Source of the DNA: a virus
Taxonomy: Duplodnaviria > Caudoviricetes
Direction: 5' to 3' (one strand)
Virus record (IMG/VR): IMGVR_UViG_3300028374_000002
Location: 96,001 to 160,000 of that record
DNA: 64,000 nt
Each line of letters starts with the position of its first letter. Position 1 is the stretch's first letter. The translations under genes were made by a program, and so were the position numbers. The notes beneath the pieces were generated by a model. That model worked only from the letters and a program-made list of their open reading frames with translations, searched no databases and was not told the origin of the DNA. Shown here one piece after another: positions 14,024-23,014 of the stretch.

Positions 14024-14467
14024 ATGAATAGTAATTTTAAAATAATAGAAGCCGATTCTCTCTTAGAAGGTGAGTACGACAAACCATTATATGATAAGTT
14101 CGTAGAAGCTTATGGGGTTAATAATTTAGAAGTTGAAACACCACAAGGGTGGATTGATATTGAAGGAATTGGAAAAACTATTAAATATGAAGAATATAAA
14201 CTAATCCTTGCTAATGGGTGTGAATTGATATGTGCAGATGACCATATACTATACAGATGTGATAATCTGAACTTTATTAGTAGGAAGTGTGACATAACAG
14301 AACTATTTTGTAAGAACTTAGAATTAGGTGATTTTATAATGACCAAAGAAGGCCCTGAGATGATAATGGATTTTGATAAGACTGGAAAAGAATCACATAT
14401 GTATGACTTACAACTTGGTGTAGGTTCTGATAAAAAATACTACACTAATGGTATATTAAGTCACAAC
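14024..14467 (+). mobile_element. Long C-intein (148 aa), Ser+1
   Basis: VETPQGW, block B CADDHIL, block F MYDL, block G SHN|S. Confidence 0.85.
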
Positions 14468-15184
14468 TCACTTTGGATGCAGAACTTTGCAGTAAAGAGT
14501 GCCAATAGTGGACATAACGTACTATACATTACACTAGAGATGAGTGAAAGAAAAGTTATGAAGAGGTTGGGTTCTATGCGTTTGAAAATACCTATAAATG
14601 ATTATGATACAATATCAAAAGATACTGAACTCATAAGAAGGAAGATAAAGGGATTATCTAGTATATCAGAAAATGATTTATTTGATAAGAAGGTAGGTAA
14701 GATAATGACTAAGTTTTGGGCAGCTGGTACTGCAAATATTGATGACTTTGATTATTATATCCAAAAGTTAAAAGATAAGAGAGATATAAAAATAGATATG
14801 ATTATAGTAGATTATATAACACTCATAGCACCATTAAAAGCACCAGGTGTTGATAGTCTCTATACTAAGGGTAAACAACTTGCTGAAGGTTTGAGGGCAT
14901 TAGGGGCTAAATATTCATGCCCAGTTGTAACTGGTGTACAAGTAGCTAAAGATGCTTGGAATTCATCTGATATAACACTAGAAAGTGTACCAGAATCTAA
15001 GGCTATCGCAGAAACTGCCGACACATTTTTTGCAATAATAAGAACGGAAGAAATGAAAAGGCAAAACCTATTCAGATTTAAACTTCTTAAACAAAGAGAT
15101 GGAGATTTTCTTAAATCACAGGTTAGACTAACATTAAACACGACATATCTAACATTAGAGGGTGATATGTTTGTTGATCAATAA
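14024..15184 (+). CDS. dnaB: gp41/DnaB helicase, C-part, starting with a 148-aa C-intein
   Basis: ...YTNGILSHN then SLWMQNFA; YITLEMSE, IIVDYI, SKAIAETAD, KQRDG helicase motifs. Confidence 0.9.
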   Translation: MNSNFKIIEADSLLEGEYDKPLYDKFVEAYGVNNLEVETPQGWIDIEGIGKTIKYEEYKLILANGCELICADDHILYRCDNLNFISRKCDITELFCKNLELGDFIMTKEGPEMIMDFDKTGKESHMYDLQLGVGSDKKYYTNGILSHNSLWMQNFAVKSANSGHNVLYITLEMSERKVMKRLGSMRLKIPINDYDTISKDTELIRRKIKGLSSISENDLFDKKVGKIMTKFWAAGTANIDDFDYYIQKLKDKRDIKIDMIIVDYITLIAPLKAPGVDSLYTKGKQLAEGLRALGAKYSCPVVTGVQVAKDAWNSSDITLESVPESKAIAETADTFFAIIRTEEMKRQNLFRFKLLKQRDGDFLKSQVRLTLNTTYLTLEGDMFVDQ

Positions 15185-16203: not shown

Positions 16204-17400
16204 ATGATAAAGGTAGTAAAAAGAAATGGTAAGAAAGAACCAGTAATGCTAGATAAAATTCTAGATAGAATAGAGCAACAAACTTATGGATTAGATAGAA
16301 AATGGGTAAGTCCATTTGATGTTGCACAAAAAGTAATTGGTGGTGTTGCACCAGATATAAAGACCTCAGTCCTAGATAAACTAGCAACCGAGACAGCTGC
16401 CGCATTAGCTACTAAGCACCCAGATTATTCAATATTAGCATCAAGATTAGCTATAACTGCATTGCATAAAGATACGAAAAAATCATTTTCTGAAACGGTT
16501 AAAGATTTATACAAATATATAAATCCAAAGACAAATGAGAAATCACCAATTGTGTCTAAAAGTTTCTATGAGATTGTTAAGAAAAATGCAGATAAGCTAG
16601 ACTCTGCTATAATACATACTAGAGACCATCATTTTGATTTCTTTGGTTTCAAAACATTAGAGAAGTCTTATTTGTTAAAAATAAATGGTGAAGTTGCAGA
16701 ACGTCCTCAATATATGTATATGAGAACTGCCATACAAATATGGCAAGATAATATTGATAAAGTTATTGAGACATATAATACGATGTCTGAGGGGTATTAC
16801 ACACACGCTACACCAACTTTATTCAATTCTGGTACTAGGAGACCACAATTATCTTCTTGCTTCTTATTAGACACGGAAGATGATTCTATTGAAGGGATAT
16901 TTAACACTCTTAAAGAATCTGCTCAAATATCTAAAAACGCAGGTGGGATAGGTATTAATTTCAATAATGTAAGAGCAAAGGGTAGTTATATAGCAGGTAC
17001 TAACGGTACTTCGAATGGTATAATTCCTTTCTTAAAGATTTATAATGAAACTGCTAGAGCAGTTGACCAGTGCTTTACACCAGAGAGTAAAGTAATAACA
17101 GAGAGAGGTGTTATAAACATAAATGAAGTAGAAAGGGGTGACAAAGTCTTGACTAGTGATGGTGTTTATAATTCTGTCATAAAGAGAAAAGATTTTAATA
17201 AATCAGATGACTTTATAACAATTACAACAAAGAGTGGTGTTAATAGAGTTACTAAAGGTCACCAAATATTAGTTATTAGAGGTTTGGATAAAGACATATC
17301 TAAAGAAGCCATTAAAGAAGGGATTAAGCAAGGTGTATATAATGTAGAATGGATTTCTGCTAATGAATTAATGAAAAGTGATAAAATAGTAAAATACTAA
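16204..17400 (+). CDS. nrdA: NrdA piece 1 (ATP cone + first catalytic Cys) + N-intein 1
   Basis: VVKRNG ATP cone, ATPTLFN, QLSSCFL, GGIG, RAVDQ then CFTPES. Confidence 0.95.
   Translation: MIKVVKRNGKKEPVMLDKILDRIEQQTYGLDRKWVSPFDVAQKVIGGVAPDIKTSVLDKLATETAAALATKHPDYSILASRLAITALHKDTKKSFSETVKDLYKYINPKTNEKSPIVSKSFYEIVKKNADKLDSAIIHTRDHHFDFFGFKTLEKSYLLKINGEVAERPQYMYMRTAIQIWQDNIDKVIETYNTMSEGYYTHATPTLFNSGTRRPQLSSCFLLDTEDDSIEGIFNTLKESAQISKNAGGIGINFNNVRAKGSYIAGTNGTSNGIIPFLKIYNETARAVDQCFTPESKVITERGVININEVERGDKVLTSDGVYNSVIKRKDFNKSDDFITITTKSGVNRVTKGHQILVIRGLDKDISKEAIKEGIKQGVYNVEWISANELMKSDKIVKY
17071..17397 (+). mobile_element. Split intein 1, N-part (109 aa)
   Basis: CFTPESKVIT, GDKVLT, block B TKGHQIL, WISANEL...D. 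Confidence 0.9.
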
Positions 17401-17410
17401 TATTTGTAGT

Positions 17411-17420
17411 TTAATATATA
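17411..17420 (+). promoter_or_regulatory. Phage promoter TTAATATATA ahead of the first intein-splitting endonuclease
   Basis: Exact match to the recurrent intergenic motif, correct orientation. Confidence 0.6.
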
Positions 17421-17466
17421 TAGTAACAATCCTCTAGGGTTTGTAAAAAATATATTAAACTATAGT

Positions 17467-18390
17467 ATGGTAAAGTGTAATACGGAAGAAACAATTAAAA
17501 AATTTAAAAAAAAGCATAGTAATAAATATAGTTATGAGTTAGTTAAATATAAATCAGCAATATCTAAGGTTAGTATAATATGTAGTAAGCATGGAATATT
17601 TGAGATAACGCCAAATAGTCATTTAAATGGTTCTGGTTGTAGTTTATGTGGTAGAGAAAGAACTGGTGAGAGCAAAAAGTCTGATACATCCTTGTTTGTA
17701 AAATCTGCTAATAGAGTACATTCTCATAAATATAATTATAATAGATGTACCTATATAACAAATTTAGACAATGTTACAATAACTTGTAAAAAACATGGCG
17801 ACTTTTACCAACAAGCTAGAAAGCATTTATCTGGACAAGGCTGTAAAAAATGTGCTAATGAAAGCCAATATTGTAATTTCGTAGAAAAATGTGAGAAAAA
17901 GTATAAAGACTATTTATATAGTAAAGTAAACTACAAAGGTATGTGTAGTGATGTTATAATAACTTGTAAAAAACATGGCGATTTCAGTATTAAAGCTGCC
18001 AATTTTTATCATAAAGGAAGAGGTTGTAAATTATGTAAAACATATAATAAGTCTATTAAAGAAGGCGAATGGTTAGATGATATGGGGATAGATAACATCA
18101 ATAGAAATGTGTATATTAATTTTGGTAAAAAGGTTTTCTGTGTAGATGGTATAGATAAGAAAAGAAAAATAATATACGAATTTTATGGTGACTTTTTCCA
18201 CGGAAATCCTGAAGTTTATAAAAAAACAGATATAAATCCACTTCTTAAAGAAGAATATGGAAAACTTTATAAAAAAACAAAAGATAAAGAAAACATTATT
18301 ATCTCAAATGGATATAAGATAATATATATTTGGGAAAATGATTATAATAAAAATAAAAATAAAAACGGAAAGTATGAAAGAAAACATTGA
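17467..18390 (+). CDS. Free-standing endonuclease (CxxHG...CxxC zinc repeats + Vsr/DUF559-like domain) splitting intein 1
   Basis: Three C.KHG.F..GC..C modules; VDG...IYEFYGDFFHG...IWE. Confidence 0.8.
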   Translation: MVKCNTEETIKKFKKKHSNKYSYELVKYKSAISKVSIICSKHGIFEITPNSHLNGSGCSLCGRERTGESKKSDTSLFVKSANRVHSHKYNYNRCTYITNLDNVTITCKKHGDFYQQARKHLSGQGCKKCANESQYCNFVEKCEKKYKDYLYSKVNYKGMCSDVIITCKKHGDFSIKAANFYHKGRGCKLCKTYNKSIKEGEWLDDMGIDNINRNVYINFGKKVFCVDGIDKKRKIIYEFYGDFFHGNPEVYKKTDINPLLKEEYGKLYKKTKDKENIIISNGYKIIYIWENDYNKNKNKNGKYERKH

Positions 18391-18565
18391 AAGTGGAACA
18401 GAATGGATTGAAGATCCTGTTGATTTAAATCTAATTATAGACAATTTAGATTTTGAAGGTATAGAGGATATATCAATTAATAAAATAGAGAATCAAAATG
18501 TTCATGATCTAGAGATAGAAAATCAACATAATTATATTGTTGATGGGCTAGGAATAGTTCATAAC
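18374..18565 (+). mobile_element. Split intein 1, C-part (64 aa), followed by Gly+1
   Basis: [22 protein letters not shown]; next codons are GGT GGA GGT. Confidence 0.85.
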
Positions 18566-19604
18566 GGTGGAGGTAAATAAGCGTATGCTTCCACTTTAAA
18601 AAATTTGGAGAATTGCTGGGAAATTCTTAGAGTTATCATTACTACAACATAAAGAGTAATCTTAAGTGTGAAAGTTAAAAAAATGATAAATTGGACAATC
18701 AGCAGCCGCCTTTCTTAGGGATAAGAAAAAGGTTCAACGACTAATGAGAGTAATGTAGACCACAAGAAATCAACACGAGCACCAAACACAGAAATGTGAA
18801 GATATAGTCTGATCTTGTATGAAAGTATAAGAAATTAGGATAAAGACCCTAATGATAACAAAGTAAATGAAACGCAAAGGAAGTATAGCCATTTATATGG
18901 AACCATGGCATGCTGATATTATGGAGTTCTTAGATTTAAGAAAAAACCAAGGTAAGGAAGAAATCAGGGCTAGAGATTTATTCCTAGCTATGTGGATGAA
19001 TGACCTATTTATGGAAAGAGTTGATTTGGACAAAGATTGGTCTTTGATGTGTCCTAACGAATGTAAAGGATTGGGTGATACTTATGGTGATGAATTTCGT
19101 GAGTTATACCTTAAATATGAAAGTGAGGGAAAATATAAAAAGGTTGTTAAGGCTAGAGAAGTTTGGAATAAAATCTTAGAGTCTCAAATAGAAACTGGTA
19201 CACCTTATATACTCTATAAAGATACTATTAATGAGAGGTCTAATCAAAAGAATATTGGTGTTATCAAAAGTTCCAATCTTTGTCTAGACGGTAGTAGCTT
19301 GGTAAGATGTAAGATTAATGGTGTTGAAGAAGAACTTGATATGGTTACTATAGATGGTTTGTTTAAAGATGGTAAGGTAATAGAAGTTTTATCTAGAGAT
19401 GTTAAGAATGGTCTTGATGAGTGGTGTCTAGTTGAGAATTCAGGAATGATAAACAATAATGCAGAAACAATTAAAGTAACAGACAAAGAAACTGATAACT
19501 TTATAATATGTACAGAAGATCATAAAATATGGACTGAAAACAGAGGATATATTAAGGCAATTGATTTAAACGTGGATGATATAGTTAAAATTATGGAATC
19601 ATAA
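18374..19604 (+). CDS. nrdA: NrdA piece 2: C-intein 1 + extein + N-intein 2; spliced join(18374..18574,18870..19604), 311 aa
   Basis: IVHN|GGG [intron] [14 protein letters not shown] ... ETGTPY ... KSSNL|CLDG; splicing restores the conserved VDQGGGKRKG. Confidence 0.9.
18575..18869 (+). mobile_element. ORF-less group I intron (295 nt)
   Basis: P AATTGCTGGGAA 18611, Q AATCAGCAG 18697, R GTTCAACGACTA 18732, S AAGATATAGTC 18799; P1 GTGGAGGT/GCTTCCAC with U.G at the 5' splice site; terminal G; GAAA-capped P8 and P9. Confidence 0.92.
19281..19601 (+). mobile_element. Split intein 2, N-part (107 aa)
   Basis: SNL|CLDGSS; block B CTEDHKIW; YIKAIDL...DD. Confidence 0.9.
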
Positions 19605-19639
19605 ATATCGGCAAATAAAATTATCAGAAACACACATAA

Positions 19640-19649
19640 TTAATATATA
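19640..19649 (+). promoter_or_regulatory. Phage promoter TTAATATATA ahead of the second intein-splitting endonuclease
   Basis: Exact motif 14 nt before the ATG. Confidence 0.6.
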
Positions 19650-19663
19650 AAATAAAAATAATT

Positions 19664-20515
19664 ATGTGTGTTTCTTCTAATTACTTATATATTATCACTG
19701 ATACAACAAAACCAGGTAACTATGAGTTTGGTAACCTTAAGTTTCAGTTCTTACCATTCTACGTTGGTGTTTCTAATACAGAAACCTATTACAAAAGGGA
19801 AGACGTGCATATAAGGTATGCTAAAATTAAAAAAGATGTTACCAAAAATAAGTATAAGATGAATATAATAAACAAAATACTTAAATCTAATAAAGAACCA
19901 CATATATATAGATTATACGAAAATTCTACAAGAGATTTTATATTTAAAAAAGAAATTGACCTAATACTAATGATTGGTAATAGGTTTGATAAAACAGGAC
20001 CACTAGTGAACATATCAAAAGGTGGTGAAGGTGGTGATACTTTCACAAACAATCCACGCAAGGAAGAAATAAGAGAGAAGCATAGGTTGAATGCAATAGG
20101 ATCTAAAAATAACATGTATGGTTTACCGTTGGAAAAAAGACCATCTCATATTTCAAAACTAAGTGGGACACATTGGAATAAGGATAGTGTTGTAAGCGAT
20201 TCCACTAGAAAGAAACTATCAAATAAGAGCAAAGGTCATAATAATAACAAGTCAAAATTTACACTATTATTTGATAAAGATTTCAATTTTATAAAAGAAT
20301 TTGAATGTTGTATGTATATAGCAGAACATATAGGATCAACAAAAAAAGCTGTTTCAACAACGGCAAGGAGAAATTCGAAAAAAGAAATCCCTTATCACAC
20401 AACAAAAGAATTCTTTATTATATATAAAGAGGACTGGGAAAATAAATTTAAACATAAAGAGGAAGAAATTAAAGAATTTCTTAGAACTTTTAGAAAAAAT
20501 AAAAATCAATTTTAA
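19664..20515 (+). CDS. GIY-YIG homing endonuclease splitting intein 2
   Basis: YLYIITD...PFYVG; GPLVNISKGGEGG; related to the N-terminus of 4009..5793. Confidence 0.8.
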   Translation: MCVSSNYLYIITDTTKPGNYEFGNLKFQFLPFYVGVSNTETYYKREDVHIRYAKIKKDVTKNKYKMNIINKILKSNKEPHIYRLYENSTRDFIFKKEIDLILMIGNRFDKTGPLVNISKGGEGGDTFTNNPRKEEIREKHRLNAIGSKNNMYGLPLEKRPSHISKLSGTHWNKDSVVSDSTRKKLSNKSKGHNNNKSKFTLLFDKDFNFIKEFECCMYIAEHIGSTKKAVSTTARRNSKKEIPYHTTKEFFIIYKEDWENKFKHKEEEIKEFLRTFRKNKNQF

Positions 20516-20540
20516 TAAAAAAATAAAAAAATAAAAAAGC

Positions 20541-20636
20541 ATGATAAAAATAGAAAGAGTAAAAAATAGACCTGTTTATGATATTACAGTAAATAAAAAC
20601 AATAATTTTTATGCAAATAACATATTAGTTCATAAT
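20541..20636 (+). mobile_element. Split intein 2, C-part (32 aa), Cys+1
   Basis: VYDITV..NNNFYANNILVHN|C. Confidence 0.9.
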
Positions 20637-21620
20637 TGTGGTGAGATAGTAGAAGCCACGGGAATTACAAAAGCACAAAAGCCTATATTGGAAAACAAGG
20701 AACTTTTAGAAAAATTAAATCTAGGAGAGTTTTATGGCAAAGAAAGTGTTAATGAGACTGCTGTTTGTAATTTGGCATCTATTGCACTACCTAAGTTTGT
20801 GAATAAGAATAAAACATATAATCATAAAAAGCTATACGAAACTGCTTATACTGCAACTGTAAATCTAAATAATGTAATTGATTATAATTATTATCCTTCT
20901 GAAAATGCTAAATTTTCTAATATATTACACAGACCGATTGGTTTGGGTGTACAAGGATTAGCAGATGTATTTTTCCTAATCGGAATTCCTTATGACTGTG
21001 ATGATGCTAAAGCACTTAATAAAGAAATATTCGAAACTATTTATTACGGAGCTTTATCTGCATCGAATGATTTGGCTAAGGAACAAGGAACATATGAGAC
21101 TTATAAAGGTTCTCCTTTATCAGAGGGTAAATTTCAGTTTGACTTATGGGGTGCTACACCAACAAAAAGATGGGATTGGGAAAAGCTAAGAGTTAAAATA
21201 TTAGAGCATGGTGTTAGAAACTCTTTAACTACGTGTGTTATGCCGACCGCTTCGTGTTTTACTAGTGATGGTACTATATTCACAGAGGATGGTGTAAAGT
21301 CTTATAGAAATATAATGAATGATATGGATATAGATTGGGAGAAAATAGAAGAAACCAATGAGCAAGGATGGATTAAATTTAAAACACCATTAATGGTAGA
21401 AACTAGATTTGGTCTTAGAGAGTCTAATAAAATATTCTACAATGGTCATAAGGAAGTTATAGAAATCGAATTAGAAGATGGGAACATATTTAAATGTACT
21501 GAAAATCATAAGTTCTTAGTAGAAAGGGATGGTGCTGATGAATGGATTACTGCTAATGATTTAGTAGAAAGTGATGAGATTGTTGAAAGTAGCCTAATGC
21601 TCGAAAATACGAGGGAGTAG
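20541..21620 (+). CDS. nrdA: NrdA piece 3: C-intein 2 + extein + N-intein 3
   Basis: ILVHN|CGE (thiyl-radical Cys as +1), VCNLASI, RPIGLGVQGLAD, RNSL..MPTAS|CFTS. Confidence 0.95.
   Translation: MIKIERVKNRPVYDITVNKNNNFYANNILVHNCGEIVEATGITKAQKPILENKELLEKLNLGEFYGKESVNETAVCNLASIALPKFVNKNKTYNHKKLYETAYTATVNLNNVIDYNYYPSENAKFSNILHRPIGLGVQGLADVFFLIGIPYDCDDAKALNKEIFETIYYGALSASNDLAKEQGTYETYKGSPLSEGKFQFDLWGATPTKRWDWEKLRVKILEHGVRNSLTTCVMPTASCFTSDGTIFTEDGVKSYRNIMNDMDIDWEKIEETNEQGWIKFKTPLMVETRFGLRESNKIFYNGHKEVIEIELEDGNIFKCTENHKFLVERDGADEWITANDLVESDEIVESSLMLENTRE
21255..21617 (+). mobile_element. Split intein 3, N-part (121 aa)
   Basis: MPTAS|CFTSDG; block B CTENHKFL; WITANDL..SD. Confidence 0.9.
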
Positions 21621-21640
21621 GCATAGGACAAGGCATCACT

Positions 21641-21650
21641 TTAATATATA
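21641..21650 (+). promoter_or_regulatory. Phage promoter TTAATATATA ahead of the third intein-splitting endonuclease
   Basis: Exact motif 15 nt before the ATG. Confidence 0.6.
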
Positions 21651-21665
21651 AATAAAAAAGTATTT

Positions 21666-22904
21666 ATGGTTAAAGTGATGTCTAAGTCTTTCTCTTCAAA
21701 GCGAATGTTTTTAAAAAAATTAAAAGGTGTGAAAATAGTTGAAAGTGATATAGAATGTGGTATAGATGAATTATTTGCGTGGTATGGAATACCAGAGAGT
21801 ATAAATTTATGTAAAAAAATTGACATAATAAACCTAAAATTAAATAATAACATCGATGATAGGCAGTTAAAAACATATTTAAAAAAATCATTAAATACTT
21901 TTGAAATTAAAAGGTTTTTATCCTATATTGAATATAAAAGTAATAATCCTAAAGATGTTAGTTCAGAAAATTATTTTAAGTTAGTATATGGTAAAGGTTG
22001 GGAAAATTATAAAGACAAGAAAGCAAAGGATAGAAAATCCCCATATGACTTAGAGTATGTTGCCAAGTCCAATAATATATCAACTGATAAAGCTAAATGT
22101 AAGATATCAAAAATGAAATCAGACAAAGCAACTAACCTAGTTGGATTTATAAGAAGACATGGTAAAGAAAATGGTGAAAAAATGTTTCAAAAATTTCAAT
22201 TAACTAGCAAACATACATTAGAAAAGTATATTAACAAACACGGAAGTATCATAGGATTAGAAAAATGGAATAAGTATTTGTTGGTTAAATCAGAAACTTC
22301 AGCATTTAATAAAAATTTTTGGATTAACAAAGGATTTACTAAAAAAGAATCAATCGCTAAAGTCAGAAAAATATCAGACAATAGTAGTTTGAAATATTTT
22401 ATAAATAAACATAATGGTAATATAGATGTTGCAAAGACTGAATTTATCAAATTTATTAGGAAAAAGGGTGTAAATTTCAATAATGCAAGTAAGGAGTCAT
22501 TAACTTACTTTAATAGTTTGTATAAAAAACTAATAGAATTTGGTATATATGATTGTGATATACACTTAGGTGCATTTGGTAAAAATGAGTTATGCCTTTT
22601 CTATGAAGATGGTTGCTATCTTTATGATTTTGCTATAAAAAGTCATAAGCTAATTATAGAATATCACGGTGAGAGATGGCATCCTAACCCTGATAGATTA
22701 TCTGATAAAGAATGGAATTCGTGGAAATGTATTGCTAGTGGTATCAGTGCAAATGAAAAGCATTTAAGAGATAGGCATAAAGAAAAAGTGGTATATGACA
22801 ATGGTTTCAAATTACTAGAAATATGGTCTAATGATACATATAAACTTAATTGTTATAAAATAAATAACTTTTTAGAAGAAAATAATATAAAAATAAATAA
22901 ATAA
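21666..22904 (+). CDS. Free-standing Vsr/DUF559-like endonuclease splitting intein 3
   Basis: C-terminal YLYDF...LIIEYHGERWH...LLEIWS; KHG..G..K repeats. Confidence 0.75.
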   Translation: MVKVMSKSFSSKRMFLKKLKGVKIVESDIECGIDELFAWYGIPESINLCKKIDIINLKLNNNIDDRQLKTYLKKSLNTFEIKRFLSYIEYKSNNPKDVSSENYFKLVYGKGWENYKDKKAKDRKSPYDLEYVAKSNNISTDKAKCKISKMKSDKATNLVGFIRRHGKENGEKMFQKFQLTSKHTLEKYINKHGSIIGLEKWNKYLLVKSETSAFNKNFWINKGFTKKESIAKVRKISDNSSLKYFINKHNGNIDVAKTEFIKFIRKKGVNFNNASKESLTYFNSLYKKLIEFGIYDCDIHLGAFGKNELCLFYEDGCYLYDFAIKSHKLIIEYHGERWHPNPDRLSDKEWNSWKCIASGISANEKHLRDRHKEKVVYDNGFKLLEIWSNDTYKLNCYKINNFLEENNIKINK

Positions 22905-22906
22905 TT

Positions 22907-23014
22907 ATGAAAATAAAAAAGATTACAAAATCACAAACGACTAAACCTACATGGGATATAGAAGTAGAAGATGTTCACGAGTATCTAACTGGAAATATGT
23001 GTGTGTCACATAAT
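22907..23014 (+). mobile_element. Split intein 3, C-part (36 aa), Thr+1
   Basis: MKIKKI...TWDIEVEDVHEYLTGNMCVSHN|T. Confidence 0.9.

Follow-up and report, generated by a model that had tools for sequence, protein, structure and literature searches.

A naturally split, intron-linked intein with glycine at the +1 position in loop 2 of a phage ribonucleotide reductase

The DNA considered here is a stretch of 64,000 nucleotides of a virus of the Caudoviricetes (Duplodnaviria), namely positions 96,001 to 160,000 of IMG/VR record IMGVR_UViG_3300028374_000002 (hereafter the window), and within it the gene for the alpha subunit of a class Ia ribonucleotide reductase (RNR). The subunit is encoded on the forward strand between 16204 and 23686 as four pieces that are joined by three split inteins, and each gap between pieces holds one free-standing endonuclease-like gene (Table 1). 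The first of these inteins, intein 1, is the subject of this work. Its initial codon TGC (Cys1, 17071-73) follows directly on the Gln codon CAG (17068-70) of the host protein, its terminal codons are CAT AAC (His-Asn, 18560-65), and the codons that come next, at 18566-74, are GGT GGA GGT. An earlier note, made from the letters of this DNA, had described the Cys start, the His-Asn end and the three Gly codons, and its coordinates and letters proved correct; its reading of GGGK and a stop codon as the end of a gene piece did not hold, as a group I intron begins after those nine bases and the unspliced codons that follow GGG, AAA TAA, are the opening bases of that intron. The RNA-spliced reading is ...VDQ/intein/GGGKRKGS (a slash here and below marks a splice junction of the protein), in which residue +1 is Gly. 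As far as we know, textbooks and reviews state that inteins need Cys, Ser or Thr at this position.

Table 1. Features of the interrupted RNR gene in the window (coordinates in window numbering)
Feature	Position	Strand	Details
N-extein, RNR alpha piece 1	16204..17070	+	Pfam PF03477, PF00317, PF02867; ends ...ARAVDQ
IntN1 (N-terminal half of intein 1), 109 amino acids	17071..17397	+	Cys1; block B T-K-G-H; ends IVKY; stop 17398-17400
Homing-endonuclease-like gene, 307 amino acids	17467..18390	+	free-standing, between the halves of intein 1
IntC1 (C-terminal half of intein 1), 64 amino acids	18374 (ATG)..18565	+	acidic N-terminal part, then blocks F and G ending ...GLGIVHN
Gly+1, Gly+2 and Gly+3 codons, GGT GGA GGT	18566..18574	+	last 9 nucleotides of exon 1; 5' strand of intron P1
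Group I intron without an open reading frame, 295 nucleotides	18575..18869	+	RF00028; guide sequence 18587-18595; terminal G 18869
C-extein segment, ...SSNL	18870..19280	+	Pfam PF02867; reaches Cys1 of split intein 2 at 19281
Split intein 2	19281-20636	+	SNL/C...VHN/CGEI; GIY-YIG-like gene at 19664-20515
Split intein 3	21255-23014	+	PTAS/C...SHN/TAQI; 412-amino-acid gene at 21666-22904 with weak DUF559/REase matches

The site of insertion can be read from an allele in which it is empty. In the related 642-kb huge phage LR756502.1 the gene is uninterrupted and reads VDQGGGKRKGS, lacking both the intein and the intron, which places intein 1 exactly between Q and G with no host residue missing; loop 2 of the split-intein host is letter for letter that of this empty-site allele. 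Piece 1, which contains the ATP-cone, the all-alpha domain and the start of the barrel, aligns to human RRM1 as far as Q288, and in an ungapped alignment of the phage protein with RRM1 the junction falls at Q288/G289, with R293 four residues further on. From established structural work on RNR we take this site to be loop 2, the specificity loop of the enzyme, where the earlier note had also placed it. LR756502.1 has a second PF02867 RNR gene elsewhere (393656-395326), and LR756504.1, which carries the Gly+1 split intein, is without one. Additionally, ...RYVDQGGGKR... is read across the site (18876-18917 region) in a small contig of the same lake sample, which represents the uninterrupted RNR of another organism of the community.

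Relatives of the split intein share its unusual junction. A search with IntC1 returned 79 proteins, five of which are fragments without the intein C-terminus, while all 74 that retain it (64-100% identical to the window) end in VHN/GGG followed by Lys or Glu and a stop codon. Nine loci (the window, LR756504.1 and seven metagenomic contigs) have in common the VDQ/C boundary, a block B of the form TK[GDE]H, an IntN ending in Tyr and a stop codon, an IntC that runs to HN/GGG, and the intron. The earlier note had allowed that a correction of the reads might yet put Cys, Ser or Thr after the His-Asn; the contigs of four sequencing runs (10-69x) agree over 18300-19100, two being identical and two differing by one letter, and no variant is reported in them at the junction (some of the runs may be the source sample). 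An error of sequencing or assembly is rejected by the 74 independent homologues, the nine loci and the contigs of four runs. The wider supposition of an artefact, in which the true +1 residue would be Cys, Ser or Thr or the splice sites would lie elsewhere, has next to no probability, since the empty allele fixes the junction and the alternative splice sites of the intron, which were tried and rejected, would either remove the essential GG of loop 2 or meet stop codons. The Gly+1 junction is far beyond chance or error, and the assignment of Gly to +1 stands.

The intron was revealed by a targeted Rfam scan, in which it matched RF00028 with 57.5 bits (gathering score 50; E 4e-14); a scan of the whole window at gathering thresholds and with default filters gave no match. 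Its P1 helix is formed by the Gly codons at 18566-74 and the complementary stretch 18587-95, the 5' splice site being marked by a U.G pair, and these codons thus do double duty as loop 2 residues and as a P1 strand. The middle Gly codon of the window is GGA, whose A is matched by a U in the guide sequence; the other loci, with GGT for all three Gly codons, have a U-U mismatch there. At one locus (L007) the intron starts with GAG and not with AAA, such that reading through would give GGGE and a stop codon and splicing still gives GGGKRKGS; the 5' splice site must accordingly lie directly behind the third Gly codon. The ATG at the end of the intron was considered as the start of piece 2 and rejected, since an ATG is found there in only five of the nine loci, the others having TTG, CTG or CAG. 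The intron is conserved in all nine, with compensatory changes visible in its 3' hairpins, and the spacing between intein and intron is exactly 9 nucleotides in 9/9 loci; the same is implied for the 74 IntC open reading frames (ORFs) that end in GGG[K/E] and a stop codon. Intein and intron seem to be inherited as one unit, and homing started by an endonuclease would carry them together by co-conversion, as they lie 9 bp apart.

Both halves of intein 1 resemble Hint domains. IntN1 gives sub-threshold Pfam matches to Hint and Hint_2, and its top sequence match in the PDB is the hedgehog Hint domain 1at0 (E 0.002); IntC1 matches Pfam Intein_splicing (E 2e-4), and its last 35 residues align to the Spl DnaX mini-intein (PDB 7cfv) over blocks F and G. 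Blocks A, B, F and G of a class 1 intein are present in the form of Cys1, TKGH and the C-terminal VHN, and C1, T61 and H64 are invariant across eight IntN loci that are only 39-62% identical. The mobility traits of a class 1 intein are found as well (a conserved host site, an intein-less allele and an endonuclease-like gene between the halves), and the arrangement is that of a fractured gene, in which IntN ends one ORF, IntC opens the next on the same strand and the endonuclease gene lies between them. It is at +1 that intein 1 departs from class 1, this residue being Gly in the window, in 74/74 IntC homologues and in 9/9 loci. A class 3 intein, with its nucleophilic Cys in block F and its WCT signature, is ruled out since Cys1 is the only Cys of the intein (it is the sole Cys of IntN1, and IntC1 has none). 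Every residue for thioester formation and Asn cyclisation is therefore conserved and the residue for transesterification is absent, and intein 1 looks like an active, naturally split Hint domain that does without a side-chain nucleophile at +1. The ratio of nonsynonymous to synonymous substitution (dN/dS) was 0.37 for IntN1, 0.25 for IntC1 and 0.19 for the N-extein, values that are only rough because dS is saturated.

Pairing of the two halves was explored with a model of the IntN1-IntC1 complex, which gave an interface score (ipSAE, interaction prediction score from aligned errors) of 0.71 against 0.00 for the best control, a predicted local distance difference test score (pLDDT) of 71 for the partner, and at least 88% of contacts common to the runs. 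Of 78 solved complexes 51 attain the ipSAE mark used, as do 2 of 108 mismatched pairs. The model supports binding of IntN1 to IntC1 in the sense of a likeness, possibly one of memory, since split-intein complexes have already been solved. Ahead of its canonical 35 residues IntC1 has a conserved acidic part of ~28 amino acids (18374-18460; ESGTxWIEDPxDLNLxID), which forms part of the interface in the model. The halves together amount to ~173 amino acids, which is above the usual size of a mini-intein.

Searches beyond the split form placed intein 1 among a much larger set. A profile of IntN1 run against 1.8 billion representative proteins recovered 2,937 Hint proteins, many of them RNR alpha subunits with a contiguous (cis) intein directly after [DN]Q, and cis inteins at [VI][DN]Q/C were recovered with E values down to 1e-16. 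In the numbered list of family members, residue +1 is Ser (HN/SG[KR]R.GS) in thirteen cis inteins; it is Gly (HN/GGGKR or HN/GGKR) in about sixteen distinct ones. On a tree of the inteins, the base of which is poorly resolved, the Ser/Gly label changes about four times (2-5 across bootstrap trees), and the few block F columns that differ between Gly+1 and Ser+1 inteins follow lineage, none being obviously catalytic. Judged by sequence, intein 1 represents, in split form, a very large family of allelic inteins at the RNR loop 2 site, that of the Cafeteria roenbergensis virus (CroV) RIR1 type, and the earlier picture of a one-off split intein gives way to a large Ser+1/Gly+1 family in giant viruses and bacteria.

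The Gly+1 form also occurs in bacterial genomes, in some of which the host has one such enzyme. A search for the motif VAVNQCF[AD], with one genome per prokaryotic species, gave 384 genomes; 80 loci were kept, 74 of them readable, and 74/74 carry an intein of ~378 amino acids that ends in [H/R/S]N/GGKRKG. The RefSeq Undibacterium NrdA WP_322118607.1 has the same Gly+1 junction; the Undibacterium intein used alone as a query found zero related loci, and a query made from an alignment succeeded. A tblastn search of IntN1 against 50,697 phage records had the uncultured huge phage LR756504.1 as its only match. The penultimate His is missing from some Gly+1 cis inteins (loci L040, L042 and L079 and protein P0158), the ending being RN in Halochromatium, SN in Thiocapsa and TN in one metagenomic protein, and Halochromatium salexigens nevertheless has no other class I/II RNR gene. 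The Gly+1-interrupted gene is the only PF02867 (class I/II RNR) gene in four cultured bacteria, Thiothrix eikelboomii ATCC 49788, Thiocystis violacea DSM 208, Thiorhodococcus mannitoliphagus DSM 18266 and Halochromatium salexigens DSM 4395, and likewise in the complete 636-kb phage LR756504.1. Therefore, Gly+1 precursors must yield a working enzyme.

These observations bear on the supposition that no chemistry takes place at all, and that the halves merely zip the RNR pieces together and stay in place or are a decaying remnant in a dispensable gene. Phage RNR is indeed an auxiliary gene, and the tails of NrdA in phage Aeh1 assemble fragments without being processed (PMC3045599), but an inert or decaying element would not preserve Cys1, T-x-x-H and His-Asn in 74/74 and 8/8 diverged copies. 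The specificity loop would moreover be left with a Hint domain of ~170 amino acids in it, purifying selection acts on the exteins, and in the four cultured bacteria the enzyme has no class I/II substitute. We consider this account very improbable.

Aminolysis and cleavage only, both of which had been offered in the earlier note, remain the two leading readings of how the host protein is restored. Ligation through the freed amine of Gly, in the manner of the type A bacterial intein-like (BIL) domains, is in our analysis the best reading, and it is held tentatively, at somewhat less than an even chance. Upon removal of the intron by RNA splicing, IntC1-GGGKRKGS... (piece 2) would be translated and would pair with piece 1-IntN1, as the complex model suggests. 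The conserved residues point to the steps that may follow: Cys1 together with the Thr and His of block B would build a thioester between Gln(-1) and Cys1, and cyclisation at His-Asn would release the alpha-amine of Gly+1. This amine, unhindered and heading a flexible GGG, would be kept close to the thioester both by the Hint active site and by the associated halves of the RNR barrel and, by analogy with type A BIL domains, could attack that thioester and so create the native Gln-Gly bond in loop 2, the product being the same covalent loop as that of the uninterrupted enzyme. Ligation is favoured because the native loop sequence is exactly retained, because Gly+1 interchanges with Ser+1 in sister inteins that are ordinary class 1 elements and must leave an intact loop, because a nick would otherwise fall beside Q288 and R293, and because the sole RNR gene of Gly+1 hosts must give a working enzyme. 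With a little more reserve still, it may be proposed that this split intein forms the native Gln-Gly bond in trans by attack of the Gly amine and does so as one of a widespread class of true mobile inteins, to which those in the only RNR of some cultured bacteria would also belong.

Several points weigh against ligation. Ordinary inteins in which +1 has been mutated to Ala or Gly only cleave. After Asn cyclisation no covalent link would join the C-extein to the intein, and ligation would have to rely on a putative association of the exteins with each other. Literature searches found no experiment on any member of the Gly+1 family. Furthermore, all of the conservation evidence is equally compatible with a route of cleavage only, in which the Cys1 thioester would be hydrolysed or thiolysed, Asn cyclisation would free the C-extein and the Hint domain would leave, such that the RNR would be a non-covalent assembly nicked at Gln/Gly of loop 2. 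Such a route requires the same conserved residues, and a flexible loop often tolerates a nick. Cleavage also dominates over splicing in type A BIL domains, its products outweighing the spliced product (PMC4031507), and NrdA of phage Aeh1 functions as two chains (PMC3045599). The nick would, however, set charged ends next to Q288 and R293, residues of the specificity signal, and the unaided hydrolysis of a thioester is slow; the Ser+1 sisters at this site leave the loop whole, and loop 2 is as conserved in Gly+1 hosts as in uninterrupted genes. We regard cleavage only as unlikely on balance, while giving it serious weight as the chief alternative.

A different nucleophile or a helper, whether Lys+4, Ser+8, a host or phage ligase or a relay by a small-molecule thiol, might stand in for the missing side chain, and this is improbable. 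Lys+4 is conserved (GGGK or GGKR), but its attack would lead to an isopeptide branch rather than to the native chain, and Ser+8 is replaced by Ala in many Gly+1 hosts (GGGKRNGAF, GGKRKGAV). A factor acting in trans would be compatible with everything observed; against it, no conserved neighbour gene is common to the phage, giant-virus and bacterial hosts. An internal relay through Cys, as in class 3, is ruled out, Cys1 being the only Cys of the intein.

What the window holds is the naturally split form of a mobile, conserved family of inteins that lie in an essential enzyme and lack the usual Cys, Ser or Thr at +1. If ligation is true, these inteins would constitute a further mechanistic class of protein splicing and would offer a natural tool for traceless, scar-free trans-ligation at Gly, long wanted by protein engineers. 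If cleavage only is true, RNR would tolerate a nick in the loop that carries its allosteric specificity signals, and inteins would be able to persist as pure self-removing proteases. Additionally, the intron nine bases from the intein provides a clean case of RNA-level and protein-level self-splicing elements that are inherited together.

The gene between the halves of intein 1 has homologues in seven loci that carry PF05265 (DUF723), a family that the window copy matches weakly (E 0.066), and to judge from its position, as in fractured genes (PMC2677866), its product is presumably a nuclease. In the 566-kb contig L009 (4866-5001) the endonuclease gene is gone, leaving a gap of ~135 nucleotides, and both intein halves and the intron are kept. 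Split inteins 2 and 3 have canonical +1 residues (Cys and Thr, respectively). Upstream of the RNR gene, a DnaB/gp41-like helicase ORF (14024-15184) opens with a long intein-like N-terminal part that ends in SHN/S.

Other RNR inteins at the Q/G site, for which the earlier note had proposed to look in intein collections, are indeed on record. Among the inteins tabulated in the supplement of Green et al. 2018 (PMC5784728) are that of the CroV RNR, which is an InBase entry and reads VNQ/CFTPDT...GIVHN/SGRRKGS, and those of Pandoravirus RNRs, which have an N-extein of ...YVDQ and a C-extein of GGGKRKGAF and hence Gly at +1. An InBase entry named 'Avin RIR1 BIL' may be a bacterial member. The CroV intein and other Ser+1 inteins of loop 2 (such as P0102, P0139 and P0162), which were found by the IntN1 profile, share the insertion site ...VNQ/C with the window; block A of CroV is CFTPDT where that of the window is CFTPES, and its blocks F and G (HNYLTSSGIVHN) are closely like those of the window. 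CroV-type inteins are, however, contiguous, with an internal LAGLIDADG domain and an HN/SGRRKGS junction, whereas the window intein is split and has Gly at +1. They can splice canonically because +1 is Ser, and the mature loop then contains QSG rather than QGG. The Gly+1 inteins of Pandoravirus, Undibacterium, Thiothrix eikelboomii and Thiocystis violacea belong to the same family, with the same Q/G site and a His-Asn/Gly-Gly junction; these cis inteins are contiguous, with an internal endonuclease domain and no adjacent intron, whereas the window copy is split, with a free-standing endonuclease gene and an intron 9 nucleotides downstream. Literature searches on Gly+1, on NrdA or RNR inteins and on inteins without a nucleophile found no description or experimental test of the Gly junction. 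Members of the Gly+1 family are thus already catalogued, without comment that we found, and it is the naturally split, intron-linked form that is described here.

Type A BIL domains are the nearest in chemistry to the ligation favoured above. Splicing in the absence of a +1 nucleophile, by ligation through the freed alpha-amine, is reported for them (review PMC4031507), in line with the earlier note's remark that some BIL domains splice or cleave without one. The domain of Clostridium thermocellum (Dassa et al. 2004 and Aranko et al. 2013, as cited in PMC4031507) has Cys1, His-Asn and no +1 nucleophile, as does intein 1, and such domains are reported to ligate in trans when artificially split, whereas intein 1 is split by nature. 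Type A BIL domains occur in variable bacterial proteins and have no known link to mobility or to homing endonucleases; intein 1, unlike them, sits at an invariant site of a core enzyme, is polymorphic for presence and absence, and is linked to an endonuclease gene.

In its gene layout the window has two close parallels. In phage Aeh1 the RNR alpha subunit is likewise made from separate polypeptides, NrdA-a and NrdA-b, following invasion by an endonuclease gene (PMC3045599), but the Aeh1 pieces carry unprocessed charged tails without Hint chemistry, and the split lies elsewhere, with Cys431 and Glu433 (Aeh1 NrdA-a numbering) on the first piece. The fractured genes of Dassa et al. 2009 (PMC2677866), from phage-like metagenomic DNA and including nrdA, have the same order of extein-IntN, endonuclease gene and IntC-extein on one strand; their NrdA split inteins all lie at the thiyl-radical site with a canonical +1 residue, which is the site of intein 2 in the window (SNL/C) and not that of intein 1.

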